In this document: piece after piece, positions 7,601 through 19,305 of the stretch
How the letters are laid out: every line of letters begins with the position of its first letter
How positions within the stretch are numbered: the stretch's first letter is position 1
Assembly: GCA_000165345.1 (NCBI GenBank)
Contig: CM000431.1
Location: forward strand, 928,001 to 992,000
Length of the DNA: 64,000 nt
Direction of reading: 5' to 3'
The notes under the pieces: generated by a model
What the model was told of the DNA's origin: nothing
Seen by the model: only the letters and a program-made list of their open reading frames with translations
Database searches by the model: none
Translations under genes and position numbers: made by a program

Positions 7601-8797
7601 CTTGTATTATTAATAGCATGAAAGTTTTAATTACAAATCAATATAAGCATCTTGATCAAGATTTCAGTTTAGTTTCAGTCAATTCTAAAGATTATAATCA
7701 TTATCTAAAGAGTCCATCTAATACTTTAGAAATTTCTTTAGATAGTCCTGAAAATAAGAGTACAGAATATTCATCATTATATTTGCAGAATTGGCTTAAA
7801 TATTGGTCTAAAAAAGGATCAATGATTATTTACATTTTTATTGGTGATATAAATAACTTCAGTGATAATGAACATGGATTAATTAATGCCAAAAATATGA
7901 AATTAGTTGGTGCAGTTTCTATGATTGATGAACCAATGTTTGGAGTAGAGTCTACAATTAATTATATGAAAAAATATGTAACAGATCAAATATGGTTGTG
8001 CTCTGGTGATTCTTTTTATACATCAAATTCAATTGCGTCAATGGTAAGTTTATTAAAAGAAAAATTCAATAATTTTTGAATAACTTAATATATTTTTAAT
8101 TAAAGGTTGGAATAGATTATGATAAAATTATGAGTAATTCAACTCCTAATGATAAGCTTCATCTTATTCAAGATCTTCAATTAAATAAGGAATTAGATAA
8201 GATATCTAATATTGACTTAAATGAAGAAAAAACAGATAAAGAGTTCTTCAAATCTTTTGATTTAGAATTTCCTGAAAAGAATGAAGAAAATATAAAGAAA
8301 AAACAAAAAAAATCCAAAAAAAATCTAAAAAAAGTAATGATGATTGGAGATGGAATAAATGATTCAGCTTCAATAGAAGCTGCTGACATTGGAATATTAT
8401 TAGGAAAAGGCGGGATAAATAATTTTACGCATGCAGATGTAATAATATTGTCAAATTATCAAAATAATATTAAATTCTTATTTAAGCTTGGAAGGTAAGT
8501 TAAAAAGAGTAAATTAGGAAATTTTGAAGATGAGATTTTTGAGTTGTTTTTTTCCTTCTGATTTACTTAATAATTTATTGATTTAATAACTTTATTATTA
8601 TTATTATTAGAGAAGCACATAAAGTAATTAATAGAAATTTAATATGGGCATATATATTCAATGTTTTGACTATTCCAATGGCGGCGGGAATTTTTTATCC
8701 CAATATAATTATTTCTCCCGTTGTTGCAGCATTTTTAATGCTATTAAGTTCAACAATTATTGTATTTTCAAGTTTAATTTTGTATAAATTTAGATAA
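4645..8797 (+). CDS. Heavy-metal (copper-type, P1B) P-type ATPase with three exons: join(4645..8043, 8106..8494, 8611..8797). The real start may be the internal Met at about 4693 (MNSLDLQVNGMTCTSC...).
   Basis: Exon 1 has an N-terminal HMA metal-binding motif GMTCTSCA. It also has the transmembrane CPC motif (SCPCVIGITVPIAV) and the phosphorylation motif DKTGTLT. The exon-1 ORF ends at a GTAAGT donor at 8044 and the acceptor AG is at 8104-8105. Exon 2 encodes the linker to the hinge and then MMIGDGINDSASIEAADIGI, the GDGxND hinge motif. A second GTAAGT follows at 8495 with an acceptor AG at 8609-8610. Exon 3 encodes the last transmembrane helices (NLIWAYIFNVLTIPMAAGIFYP...), ending with TAA at 8795-8797. 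The reading frame is continuous across both splices. Confidence 0.85.
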
Positions 8798-14689: not shown

Positions 14690-17116
14690 TTATACAGGAA
14701 TATGTATATCTAATCTTCCAGCTCTAGTAATACTTTCATCTAGCTCAAGGATATGTTTGTTTGAAAATGCAATCACAATAACGTTTTGATTCTTCTTTTC
14801 AACATTATCTAAACAAAGAAGAAGAGTAGTGAGTAGAGTTCTGGAGTCATTGGAATTTTTTGAAGAAAATTGATCATCATTTTGGTTGTTTTCCAAGAAT
14901 ATATTAGACTGAATTAAGTTTTGTGAAGTCCAATTCAAATTAAACATATTTTTAATTTTTTCTTTATGTGAATTAATTCTAAAAGAAATATCATTAAATA
15001 AATTTGGTGAATAATTAATGAAATTTTGGTTTAATTTGGACTCTTTGGAATCATTTGTTAAGCTTAAATCCATATTTTCTTGAAAAGAGAAAGTATCTGT
15101 TTTATTATTTTGAATTATAAAATTATTTGAAATTACATCAATTCCTTCTAGAATAAGTATTGTAGGAATATTTGTATTGAATAGTTGCCTAATATTTTCT
15201 TCAGACTGTCCAACATAAGGACTTAATAAAGTAAGTATATGTTTTTGTACAAGCTTGTAATTAATATATTGTTTTTGGATATATTTAATTAATTCTTGCT
15301 TTACAATAGAAAGTTTACTTCCATTTAAGTTATTTCTACTATTATATATAAGTATTCTTGGAGTAAATTGTTGATTCATTATTTGGTTTATTTTACTATA
15401 TTCATTCTCAAACAATTTGTAAATTATTAATTGATCATTAACTTGTTGTAATATTGATTTAATACTCTCATCTTTAAAACTAAAATCTCCAGTATTTAAA
15501 GTATTAATCTTCCCATCAAATTTTTCCACAGCTCTATTCTTAAATAATAGCATTTCTTTCTCTTGCAAATAATTATTATATAATGTATTATCAATTACTA
15601 AATTTCTAAATAATATTTCCACTACTTTATAAATTAATTTTTTATCTGAAACTCCAAAACATACTCTAATTATCCAATTCACCATATTAATTCCTGTTAA
15701 ATCATCTCCATTTTTTAATAAATCTTCCTTTAATTGCTCAAAACTATGTTTGTTCAAACTTTGATAATACATTAATTCCAAAAATGTGTCATAATTTTTA
15801 TCTAATAATAAAATAGATATATATTCATTCAATTCCTTTTTTAACCTCAAATATCTACAAAGTAACTCCTTTTCATCCAATTCAGTCTCATTATTAATTT
15901 GTTCTAATAGTAATAATTTAACATTTACATGCGAACACTTGGCGCCAAATGTGTGGAAATTATTTCTTGTCATTAAACATTTTAGGTGGTAAGTATTATG
16001 AAAAGAAGGTTTGGAAGAAATATTATTTTTTTTAAAGATATTAACAAGTTCTGGTTTTTGTGAGTCATTGTATTCAATAAGAATCAGTTTTTTAATGCAA
16101 GTAAATTTTGAAAAATGTTCTTCTAGTTGATCAATTAAATTGTCATTAATTGACAAATTTGAAAAAGATGTAATATAATTATACATAAATATATTAATGG
16201 AAATTATATTTTCCAAATTTGAAATATTAAATCTTGTGATTTCCTCTAAAATATCTTTAACTCTCTCAATTATGTTATTTCTAATATTTTTCAAAACTTT
16301 TATGGAAATATTATTCTCCATTACGTATTTATTCAGAATATACGTAGTATCTAAATAAAAATAACTTAAAGCAATATTATTATTATTAATAATGTTTTTA
16401 ATATTATTAATATTTTTAACCATAAAACTTTCAATTTCTAAATTTTTTGATGTATTATTATTTGTGTTAGAATTAAAGTTTAATTGATTCACATTTGGGA
16501 TAATTAATAGGTTTGAAATAAATTTCATGTAGGTATTCTGAAATTCTTCAGAAATTAGTTTATTCTCTTTAATATATTGAATTTGAAAAAAGTAGTATTT
16601 TTCATTTATTAAAAAAGGTAGGATTAAATTATTGAGTATATCTTTTAAATTATATTCTGTTGAAATAAATTTTAAGTAGTAATAGAATTGCCTTTTTAGA
16701 CCCTCCACTAATAAATTCTTATAATTTAGTAAAAATATATCTGATTGAGTAGTTAATTGTGAAAAAAGAGGTCCAGAAAACACAATATCTGATATAATTG
16801 TTCTATTTGTAATATTTAAGCAATTCTCATTTTTTATATATTTAATATATCCTTTATTAAAATGGCTAATACAACTTAGCCCAGAATGAATATACACTAT
16901 ATCTTCTTTACAAGGATTAATATCATTATTAATTTTAAAAAAAATAAGAAATTTCAAATTTTCCAAATTTAACTCGAGTAAAATAATTCTATCATTCTTA
17001 ATATCATCAAAATCATTATTAGTCAATTTATTCACTAGTTCTCTACTAATTAAAGAAATCCCATCTTTGAGGTCTTCTCTAACCTCGATATTGCATGGTA
17101 TTATATATCTTTTCAT
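14690..17116 (-). CDS. AAA-family ATPase-like protein of 808 aa with a single degenerate AAA module. It is a putative pseudo-ATPase.
   Basis: The C-terminal approximately 200 aa align to a classic AAA domain. SPYVGQSEENIRQLF corresponds to the YVGESEKxVRxLF region after Walker A. ILILEGIDVI is Walker-B-like. LLTTLLLCLDNVEKKNQNVIVIAFSNKHILELDESITRAGRLD matches the second region of homology and keeps the arginine finger. The position where a GPPGxGKT Walker A is expected reads NSRNNLNGSKLS, which is non-canonical. The N-terminal half is unrecognised. The protein ends 6 aa after the SRH, so it may be truncated or have an unrecognised 3' splice. Confidence 0.45.
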   Translation of the reverse strand: MKRYIIPCNIEVREDLKDGISLISRELVNKLTNNDFDDIKNDRIILLELNLENLKFLIFFKINNDINPCKEDIVYIHSGLSCISHFNKGYIKYIKNENCLNITNRTIISDIVFSGPLFSQLTTQSDIFLLNYKNLLVEGLKRQFYYYLKFISTEYNLKDILNNLILPFLINEKYYFFQIQYIKENKLISEEFQNTYMKFISNLLIIPNVNQLNFNSNTNNNTSKNLEIESFMVKNINNIKNIINNNNIALSYFYLDTTYILNKYVMENNISIKVLKNIRNNIIERVKDILEEITRFNISNLENIISINIFMYNYITSFSNLSINDNLIDQLEEHFSKFTCIKKLILIEYNDSQKPELVNIFKKNNISSKPSFHNTYHLKCLMTRNNFHTFGAKCSHVNVKLLLLEQINNETELDEKELLCRYLRLKKELNEYISILLLDKNYDTFLELMYYQSLNKHSFEQLKEDLLKNGDDLTGINMVNWIIRVCFGVSDKKLIYKVVEILFRNLVIDNTLYNNYLQEKEMLLFKNRAVEKFDGKINTLNTGDFSFKDESIKSILQQVNDQLIIYKLFENEYSKINQIMNQQFTPRILIYNSRNNLNGSKLSIVKQELIKYIQKQYINYKLVQKHILTLLSPYVGQSEENIRQLFNTNIPTILILEGIDVISNNFIIQNNKTDTFSFQENMDLSLTNDSKESKLNQNFINYSPNLFNDISFRINSHKEKIKNMFNLNWTSQNLIQSNIFLENNQNDDQFSSKNSNDSRTLLTTLLLCLDNVEKKNQNVIVIAFSNKHILELDESITRAGRLDIHIPV

Positions 17117-17564
17117 TCAGTCCATCAATTTTGTTATTTTTTTCTTGATTTATTTCCATTTACATTTATAATACATTATTTTGAATGCATATTTTGTATG
17201 TAAACTTTATGTAAAATAAGATAATTTATATTCTACTTATTACGTGTAAAATATAATATATATTATACTAAGCGGCTAATTTCCTTATACAATATTTTAA
17301 TATATAAATTACAAGGAGGAAAAAAAATAGAAATAATAAGAATGAATTCGGGATAAAAAAAGAAATTATAGATAAAATCATAATCTCCAAATAACAAAAT
17401 ATAGAATCTATTATCCTTGATGTAGAATGCCTCTAACTTCTTTCAACAGGCCTTATTCAGTTTCACCTTCCTCTTAGACTATATAAGTACAGTCAAATCT
17501 ATAGAATAGACCTTAAATCATTCGAGTAAATCAATTACAAGATACTTTTCATCATTCGTATATG

Positions 17565-17613
<49 letters not shown>

Positions 17614-17711
17614 AATGATGTTAAATGGAAGGTATTCCAGATTAAAGACCGGAAATAAGCAAAAGAGGATGATGTTTTGAATTTGAGGTCGCTGATGAAG
17701 TATTAAGGATT

Positions 17712-18325
17712 TCATTGAAGAACCTTACGCTTTTGTTTCAAATTGGCTGCTCTAGCCTTACGAGCATCAAGCTGATCTTGTAATGCCTTCTCCTTAAGAT
17801 GTTCTGCCTTAGCGATGTGAATAGCTTCAATCAAGACTCTCTTATTCTTGTATTGGTTACCCTTTGATTTTAAGTAGAATTGTTTGTACATAGTCTTATT
17901 AATTTTGCCAGATTCACGATATTTACGTAAGAGACGTCTTAATACTCTTTGACGACGCATCCATAAGACCTTCTCTGGTCTTCTGGCATCCTTTGTACCT
18001 CTTCTTTTACCAAGACCCATAGAACGACCTTTTCTCTTAGCCTCATGGACTCTACTAATTCTAGCTCTTGAGTGAGTAGCAACAGCCTTCTTCAAGATCA
18101 AACCATCCTTGTATAATTTACGGATACTTTGACGAGAGTTCGCTGTTGAGATTGTGTCCATTTCAGTTGGGTCCAACCATACTCTATTTGCTCCACATTT
18201 TAAAACCTCCTTTGCTAAACGTTTTTGTAATATCAAAGGCTAATAATTTAAATAGAAACAAGATGAGTTAATATTATCCAGAATAAAGAAAATTTAAGAT
18301 TCAGGTGTGAAAATAAACTTACCAT
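17712..18325 (-). CDS. RPL19: 60S ribosomal protein L19e. Two exons: join(complement(18323..18325), complement(17712..18239)). The first exon is ATG only.
   Basis: The ORF 17712..18236 is L19e throughout ([45 protein letters not shown]...). It starts at a TTG and lacks an ATG. About 85 nt upstream on the minus strand lies ATG|GTAAGT. An acceptor ...ATTATTAG|CCT TTG ATA follows, giving [13 protein letters not shown]..., the normal L19e N-terminus. Confidence 0.85.
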
Positions 18326-19305
18326 TCTTACTAGTTATTTGATTCCTTTAATCAACGTGAAATTTAACTTTGATTTTTTTTTTAAAAAAAAAGTTTCCTC
18401 CTTTTTTTCCGGTGGATGTTTTTTTTCCCTTGAAGAATATTCACCTTAATTTAAAAAAGAAACAAAATATACTTATTGTCACGTGTATATTTTACGTTGA
18501 CTTTTAATTATTATATTATATTTACTTTAGTATATAATTTATTAATTATTTATTTAAACAAAAAAAAAATAAATATTTGTCTCGTCGGTACCGCTTTAAT
18601 GCCGGTCAATATATTATTATTTTCAAGAAGAAAAAAAAATATTTTTATTTTAAATAAAAATTGTCTCAAAAATGGGCGCCAATTATAACTTATGAATTGA
18701 ATATATAAATAATAATAAATGCATGAATTAGAGGAATTTTTTTTTTGTTCTTATTTAGAATTTCAATTGATAAATACAATTTTAAAATAAAGATTTAGTG
18801 ATATGAAATGAAGATAGAAGAAGATAAAACTTTTAATTGTTGATATTAAATCTTTATTAATTTCTTTTGAGTACTATGTTTTTTTTTTTCTTAATATAAA
18901 AAAAGTTATATACAAATTTAATACTCAATTATAATTATAAGGAAAAAAGATAAGCGCACACAAAATCTTTAGTTATTAAGTATTTATTAAAACCTCAAAG
19001 TTAAATAATATTGCATTATTTGTAAATTAGTATATTTAACCTTTTAAAAGGGTCCTATTTTAAATTGTATAAATAAAATGATTTATCGATTTCTAAAAAA
19101 AAAATCTTAACTTTAATAAGTTGGTCTTGTTAAATTACATTCAATAATTCTAAATAACTTATCTGAAAAATTTTAAAACCAAATATATTATGGCTAACAC
19201 GTAATATATTTATTAATGTAAAATAAAAAGGTTTGCACTTTACCGCCAAAAGTCTAAATAAATATTAATTTAAATATAGGAATAATTTGATCATTATAAA
19301 TTAAT

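Follow-up and report, generated by a model that had tools for sequence, protein, structure and literature searches.

A phase-0 spliceosomal intron directly after the start codon of the ribosomal protein gene RPL19 in Cryptosporidium parvum

The window (the whole stretch of DNA analysed, 64 kb in length) carries on its minus strand the gene of the C. parvum cytosolic ribosomal protein eL19 (RPL19), and it is nearly certain (probability of about 97%) that one canonical U2-type, phase-0 start codon intron of 83 nt separates the initiator ATG of this gene from the CCT codon that continues its reading frame (Table 1). In the proposed sequence of events, transcription would start at or upstream of position 18435, giving a first exon composed of the 5' UTR and the AUG; the spliceosome would cut out 18322..18240 by means of the GUAAGU, a predicted branch-like site UUAAC and the UUAG; and the mature mRNA, with its first AUG joined to the conserved PLILQKRLA... 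frame, would be translated into a 176-aa eL19, the synthesis of which would require splicing. Over 6.6 kb, the window shows 99.97% identity with CP044420.1, a contig of GCA_015245375.1; this assembly belongs to C. parvum IOWA-ATCC, and GCA_007210665.1 is that of C. tyzzeri UGA55 (Baptista et al., PMC8744675).

Table 1. Features of the RPL19 locus in window coordinates (L006, L007 and L008 are transcript contigs discussed in the text)
Feature	Position	Strand	Remarks
Exon 1: 5' UTR of at least 110 nt and ATG	18323..18435	minus	Matches nt 1-113 of L008 at 100% identity
Initiator ATG, sole coding part of exon 1	18323..18325	minus	Context AAGAATG; first AUG of the spliced mRNA
Phase-0 GT-AG spliceosomal intron, 83 nt	18240..18322	minus	Missing from contigs L006, L007 and L008
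5' splice site GTAAGT	18317..18322	minus	Same in each of the nine species
Putative branch-point motif TTAAC (YTRAY)	18267..18271	minus	Starts 32 nt before exon 2; predicted from the motif
3' splice site AG (TTATTAG)	18240..18241	minus	Intron ends in ...CATCTTGTTTCTATTTAAATTATTAG, with a T-rich tract before the AG
Exon 2, coding part: codons 2-176 and TGA stop (17714..17712)	17712..18239	minus	Pfam and PDB matches
3' UTR to the poly(A) site near 17351	17351..17711	minus	C. tyzzeri transcripts L006 and L007
(TA)21 microsatellite in the 3' UTR	17610..17569	minus	
AAA-ATPase-like gene, 808 aa	14690..17116	minus	Region of the fused C. hominis records is 14690..18325

The signals of the intron can be read directly from the DNA, and the position of the initiator ATG was obtained both by reading the strand and by a script check. 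GTAAGT stands directly 3' of this ATG, the donor nonamer being GTAAGTTTA, and exon 2 opens with CCT TTG ATA TTA CAA AAA CGT. The earlier note, made from the letters and a list of open reading frames, had described an L19e frame that begins at TTG and has no in-frame ATG at its N-terminus, with a minus-strand ATG/GTAAGT 83 nt upstream and an acceptor fused in frame to CCT TTG ATA; this description proved exact to the base throughout. In the six-frame list the L19e ORF spans 17712..18236, with a TTG start at 18236. The frame cannot be extended contiguously any further, since an in-frame TAG (18242..18240) abuts the CCT on its 5' side. Joining the ATG to 18239..17712 gives 531 nt in a single frame, which encodes a 176-aa eL19 with the C-terminus ...KVLQ. 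Splicing is obligatory for eL19, because an unspliced RNA translated from this AUG meets a stop after 25 codons, and Met26 is preceded by no other in-frame AUG.

With 83 nt and 21.7% G+C, the intron is typical in length and composition of the introns of C. parvum, which average 84-99 nt and 22% G+C (PMC4637869). Its donor, its acceptor, the YTRAY motif, its removal from transcripts and its length and composition are all those of a canonical U2-type GT-AG intron. The initiator ATG at 18325 is the sole minus-strand ATG between 18724 and the L19e ORF, and no other ATG or donor was found upstream of it within the 400 nt searched. The segment 18326..18723 of the minus strand thus comprises about 400 nt free of any ATG in a genome of 28% G+C, and a rough estimate from base composition gives about seven ATGs expected there by chance. 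Such a depletion would fit selection against upstream AUGs within the 5' UTR and promoter region.

Transcript evidence for the junction comes from contigs assembled from public runs. Three short contigs (L006, L007 and L008) encode the 176-aa eL19 contiguously. Contig L008 (ENA ERZ21846244, 737 nt) agrees with the window at 100% identity: nt 1-113 correspond to 18435..18323 and nt 113-736 to 18240..17617, exactly 83 nt being missing between the two blocks. Contigs L006 and L007 (Logan SRR29943337 and SRR29943416) come from C. tyzzeri, with 99.8-100% identity to UGA55, and have the same junction, and L006 ends in non-templated A's near window position 17351, where the genome reads CGAATTC. The RNA origin of these contigs is itself deduced: they are taken to be derived from mRNA because the intron is lost precisely and, for L006, because of the poly(A) tail. 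As L008, the C. parvum contig, reaches only 17617, the poly(A) position is taken from the C. tyzzeri contigs L006 and L007. The alignment at the junction is ambiguous by 1 nt (the G of ATG or the G of AG), and the ambiguity is settled only by the GT-AG placement, the alternative boundaries being GG...TA. In C. xiaoi, transcript contigs L015 and L016 read ...GGATAATAAG-ATG-CCC, which joins position 1483 of L014 to 1759/1760 and removes an intron of 276 nt; the 5' UTR of the C. xiaoi transcripts is at least 230 nt long.

The 5' part of L008 follows the genome without a break as far as the ATG, so that exon 1 measures at least 113 nt, and transcription is estimated to start at or upstream of 18435. 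The 5' UTR in L008 contains no ATG, and therefore the first AUG of the spliced mRNA is the one that opens the eL19 frame. The check that had been proposed for the junction, split reads spanning 18239/18323, is in effect answered at contig level by L008, and the same junction is present in the C. tyzzeri and C. xiaoi contigs. The "3-nt first exon" of the earlier note stands as regards the coding part, which is 3 nt long, and does not stand as regards the exon as a whole, which is at least 113 nt long and includes at least 110 nt of 5' UTR. A micro-exon of 3 nt was accordingly rejected, exon 1 in L008 being collinear from 18435 to 18323.

The 3' UTR contains a (TA)21 microsatellite, the length of which differs between the window, another C. 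parvum assembly (L001, in a gapped alignment) and the C. tyzzeri transcripts; this repeat may be a polymorphic marker.

The spliced 176-aa product is identical to the C. parvum 60S ribosomal protein L19 of three records (QOY42731.1, KAK9173693.1 and KAL5369734.1), and the same protein is found in C. meleagridis (POM83284.1). Comparison with solved ribosomes aligned residues 1-174 to residues 1-174 of Toxoplasma eL19 (5xxb_Q, E = 1.1e-65) and, likewise, residues 1-174 to 1-174 of P. falciparum eL19 (3j79_T). The normal L19 start that had been predicted from the sequence is that of the annotated C. parvum protein and matches both apicomplexan proteins residue 1 to residue 1. Pfam searches identified PF01280, the L19e N-terminal domain, with 86.2 bits (cut-off 25, profile positions 3-52 of 53) and PF25476 with 108.2 bits (cut-off 25). 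Codons 2-25 are near-invariant in Cryptosporidium and match the Toxoplasma and Plasmodium eL19 from residue 1. The protein contains 15.3% lysine. An initiator methionine that precedes proline at position 2 is a substrate expected to be cleaved, according to the specificity of methionine aminopeptidase, and the initiator Met of eL19 is expected to be removed before Pro2; if it is removed, exon 1 would give no residue to the mature protein.

The organisation of the locus was compared in nine species, namely C. parvum (the window), C. tyzzeri, C. meleagridis, C. ubiquitum, C. canis, C. bovis, C. ryanae, C. xiaoi and C. muris. The arrangement ATG/GTAAGT...AG/CCN fused to PLILQKR is present in all nine genomes, each with a YTRAY motif 23-35 nt before the acceptor, and the unspliced read-through from the ATG meets a stop after 3-36 codons in every one of them. 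The intron is 83 nt long in C. parvum, C. tyzzeri and C. ubiquitum, 82 nt in C. meleagridis, 85 nt in C. canis, 138 nt in C. muris, 274 nt in both C. bovis and C. ryanae and 276 nt in C. xiaoi; between clades the intron sequence is otherwise unrelated, over this range of 82-276 nt. The deposited C. andersoni model contains ...SFEM/PLILQ, the same junction. At the five genomic loci that contain the protein, a called gene of 613-614 nt holds a CDS of 531 nt, which leaves the same intron of 82-83 nt.

Two short blocks upstream of the ATG are kept in C. parvum, C. tyzzeri, C. meleagridis, C. ubiquitum and C. canis, with diverging flanks. One of them, ACACGTGACAATAAG, contains CACGTG and lies at 18472..18486 of the minus strand; the other, CATCCACCGGAAAAA(AAGGAGGAA), lies at 18404..18418 of the minus strand, within the 5' UTR transcribed in L008. 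A search of the 64-kb window for further copies, made as a test for a shared promoter element, found each block only once. The two blocks may be promoter or 5' UTR elements.

Outside the genus, the comparison used deposited gene models only. The annotated eL19 gene of Cystoisospora suis reads ATG/GTAAGT, with an intron of about 1.16 kb (L017 256..1422), and that of Vitrella brassicaformis reads ATG/GTAAGC, with an intron of about 314 nt (L018 1501..1817); in both, exon 2 resumes at residue 2. The Eimeria media gene (L019) has no intron at this position and encodes one extra residue (MQSLRLQ). On the basis of these models, the post-ATG position of the intron probably predates Cryptosporidium, and the distribution suggests an ancient RPL19 intron with lineage-specific loss. 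A stronger version, that the intron is older than the split between apicomplexans and chromerids and survived the massive intron loss in Cryptosporidium as splicing at this point is functionally required (for intron-dependent high expression or for a retention-based feedback by eL19), is considered improbable.

In yeast RPL30, exon 1 consists of the 5' UTR and the AUG, and the L30 protein binds a kink-turn in its own pre-mRNA and blocks splicing. An addition to the start codon intron reading, and not an alternative to it, would be that the RPL19 intron has been kept for regulation, either by RPL30-like autoregulation of splicing by eL19 or by enhancement of expression. The position is kept throughout the genus and also in the annotated genes of Cystoisospora and Vitrella, the unspliced RNA cannot make eL19 and encodes only a 25-aa peptide, about 90% of C. 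parvum genes are without an intron (PMC4637869), and start codon introns as a class are unusually well conserved in position (PMC1626468). Against this, the intron is no better conserved than 4-fold synonymous sites in comparisons of C. parvum with three species: the identities of intron and 4-fold sites are 0.93 vs 0.87 for C. meleagridis, 0.73 vs 0.84 for C. ubiquitum and 0.58 vs 0.59 for C. canis. Moreover, the intron shows no relation between clades in length or sequence, the folding of the exon 1/intron RNA is no better than that of shuffled sequences (z = 0.05), and Eimeria media is missing the intron at this position. With no excess conservation in the intron and no signal of RNA structure, an RPL30-like regulatory element is not claimed for RPL19, and a regulatory reason for the retention of the intron appears quite unlikely.

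Among the readings that dispense with the start codon intron, the simplest assumes no intron at all and a start at Met26 (MDTISTANS...), the first in-frame ATG of the contiguous ORF, from which a protein of 149 aa would be made. Such a start needs no splicing, and models of this kind have been deposited in GenBank for C. hominis TU502 (XP_665419.1, 149 aa) and for C. canis, C. bovis and C. ryanae (148-149 aa), all starting at Met26. However, half of the N-terminal domain would be lost, the coverage of PF01280 being reduced to positions 28-52 of 53 and its score falling from 86 to 30.5 bits; codons 2-25 are conserved as coding sequence, unlike an untranslated region; and the spliced transcripts place an in-frame AUG upstream of Met26, as the first AUG. 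The species with Met26-truncated models all have ATG/GTAAGT...AG/CCN upstream, and these models were rejected because of the PF01280 coverage and the alignment from residue 1. A start at Met26 is accordingly very improbable.

No greater likelihood attaches to a start codon provided by another upstream exon or donor, for example from an ATG further upstream or through a non-GT donor. Two deposited models are of this form: that of C. xiaoi uses ATG/GC, 20 nt downstream of the true donor, and nevertheless gives the right protein, and that of C. muris has a 27-nt first coding exon encoding an alternative 9-residue N-terminus, MILPYFYNF, followed by a 42-nt intron. The C. xiaoi transcripts, however, use ATG/GTAAGT and not the annotated donor. 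In C. muris, the conserved donor would join ...TTCGAAATG to CCG and the rival first exon would join ...TATAACTTT to CCG; other species share ATG/GTAAGT but lack the alternative ATG with its GTTAAT donor, and the ...FEM/PLILQ of the C. andersoni model fits the conserved junction. In C. parvum itself there is no alternative ATG over the 400 nt upstream, and the 5' UTR of L008 runs collinearly to the ATG. Least probable of all is a non-AUG start at the TTG (18236) of an unspliced mRNA, which is listed by the six-frame ORF finder and has a counterpart in a 174-aa version, MILQKR..., found in the protein collection as automatic calls on Logan contigs, but which is artefactual, coming from an ORF finder with the bacterial code run on eukaryotic DNA, ignores a Pro codon that precedes the TTG and is conserved and joined to ATG in transcripts, and would be preceded by an upstream AUG in a good context (A at -3) that would catch scanning ribosomes.

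The start codon intron has been handled inconsistently in public genomes. The gene model with this intron is present in the current annotations of C. parvum, C. hominis, C. tyzzeri, C. meleagridis and C. ubiquitum. The 2004 record of C. parvum Iowa II (EAK89245.1 / XP_626926.1) is a "partial" protein of 175 aa with no Met, because the ATG was not found; the C. serpentis model is also "partial" and has no Met, and the C. andersoni model carries a 23-residue N-terminal extension. Together with the records marked "missing start Met" or truncated to Met26, these models bear out the remark that gene finders easily miss a first exon whose only coding bases are the ATG. Two C. hominis records of 548 aa and 575 aa (PPA65461.1 and OLQ18967.1) are fused to the neighbouring AAA-ATPase gene; the fusion point lies near the C-terminus of RPL19 (...ANLKQK/QQINNEIELDEKELL...) and leads into the interior of the downstream AAA-ATPase-like gene. 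The C. hominis fusions look artefactual, of a kind that Baptista et al. (PMC8744675) ascribe to overlapping RNA-seq reads in this compact genome. An exact look-up of the corrected full-length proteins of C. muris, C. bovis, C. ryanae and C. canis found none of them in a collection of 15 billion proteins, and the corrected models of these four species rest on conservation. The practical value of the locus is that of an annotation check on models that disagree across public Cryptosporidium genomes, as errors in the RPL19 models spread into tables of orthologs and into phylogenomic matrices built with ribosomal proteins.

The 64-kb window was also scanned for further start codon introns of the form ATG/GTA(A/T)G(T/A). 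Rfam and tRNA scans of the window returned no matches. The 9-mer ATGGTAAGT has only two copies in the window, both strands taken together, with 0.56 expected. The second copy, at 8041, marks an apparent 62-nt intron at the plus-strand site 8041..8105, in a P-type-ATPase-like gene, with the splice deduced from the reading frame only; the site reads ...SIASM/gtaagttta...ttaaag/VGIDYDK..., shares the donor nonamer GTAAGTTTA with RPL19 and is followed downstream by a GDGINDS motif, and GTAAGT is also found at 8486. This site was rejected as a start codon intron, its ATG being the last codon of an internal exon and not an initiator. Two plus-strand sites, 30136 and 52353, read ATG/GTATGA, which is a weaker donor, and have a possible AG acceptor 116-122 nt downstream; after the possible acceptor, these candidates have long open frames of 301 and 374 codons.

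Several known systems can be set beside the C. parvum gene. Like coding micro-exons, RPL19 has 3 coding nucleotides upstream of the intron, and ab initio gene finders are defeated in the same way; unlike them, its exon 1 is a first exon with no upstream intron, and its length of at least 113 nt means that no special micro-exon mechanism is needed. As in yeast RPL30, a ribosomal protein is encoded and the first exon ends with the AUG; unlike in RPL30, the exon 1/intron boundary bears no sign of conserved structure, or of conserved sequence beyond the splice signals. The deposited C. parvum model (QOY42731.1 on CP044420.1) does not differ from the gene described here, having the same protein and the same span of 614 nt (531 nt of CDS and 83 nt of intron). 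The post-ATG intron of RPL19 is thus already known, both as an exact gene model and as an intron class, and as a discovery it matters little, the class being textbook-level for ribosomal protein genes. A survey of vertebrates, arthropods, fungi and plants, which included no apicomplexans, showed a sharp excess of phase-0 introns between codons 1 and 2, named "start codon introns", in genes of short, lysine-rich, conserved proteins without a signal peptide, ribosomal proteins being strongly over-represented among them (Nielsen & Wernersson 2006, PMC1626468). The RPL19 intron resembles this class in its phase 0 directly after the ATG, its conserved position and its host, a lysine-rich ribosomal protein of 176 aa; compared with the survey, the apicomplexan gene adds one more lineage with the same pattern.
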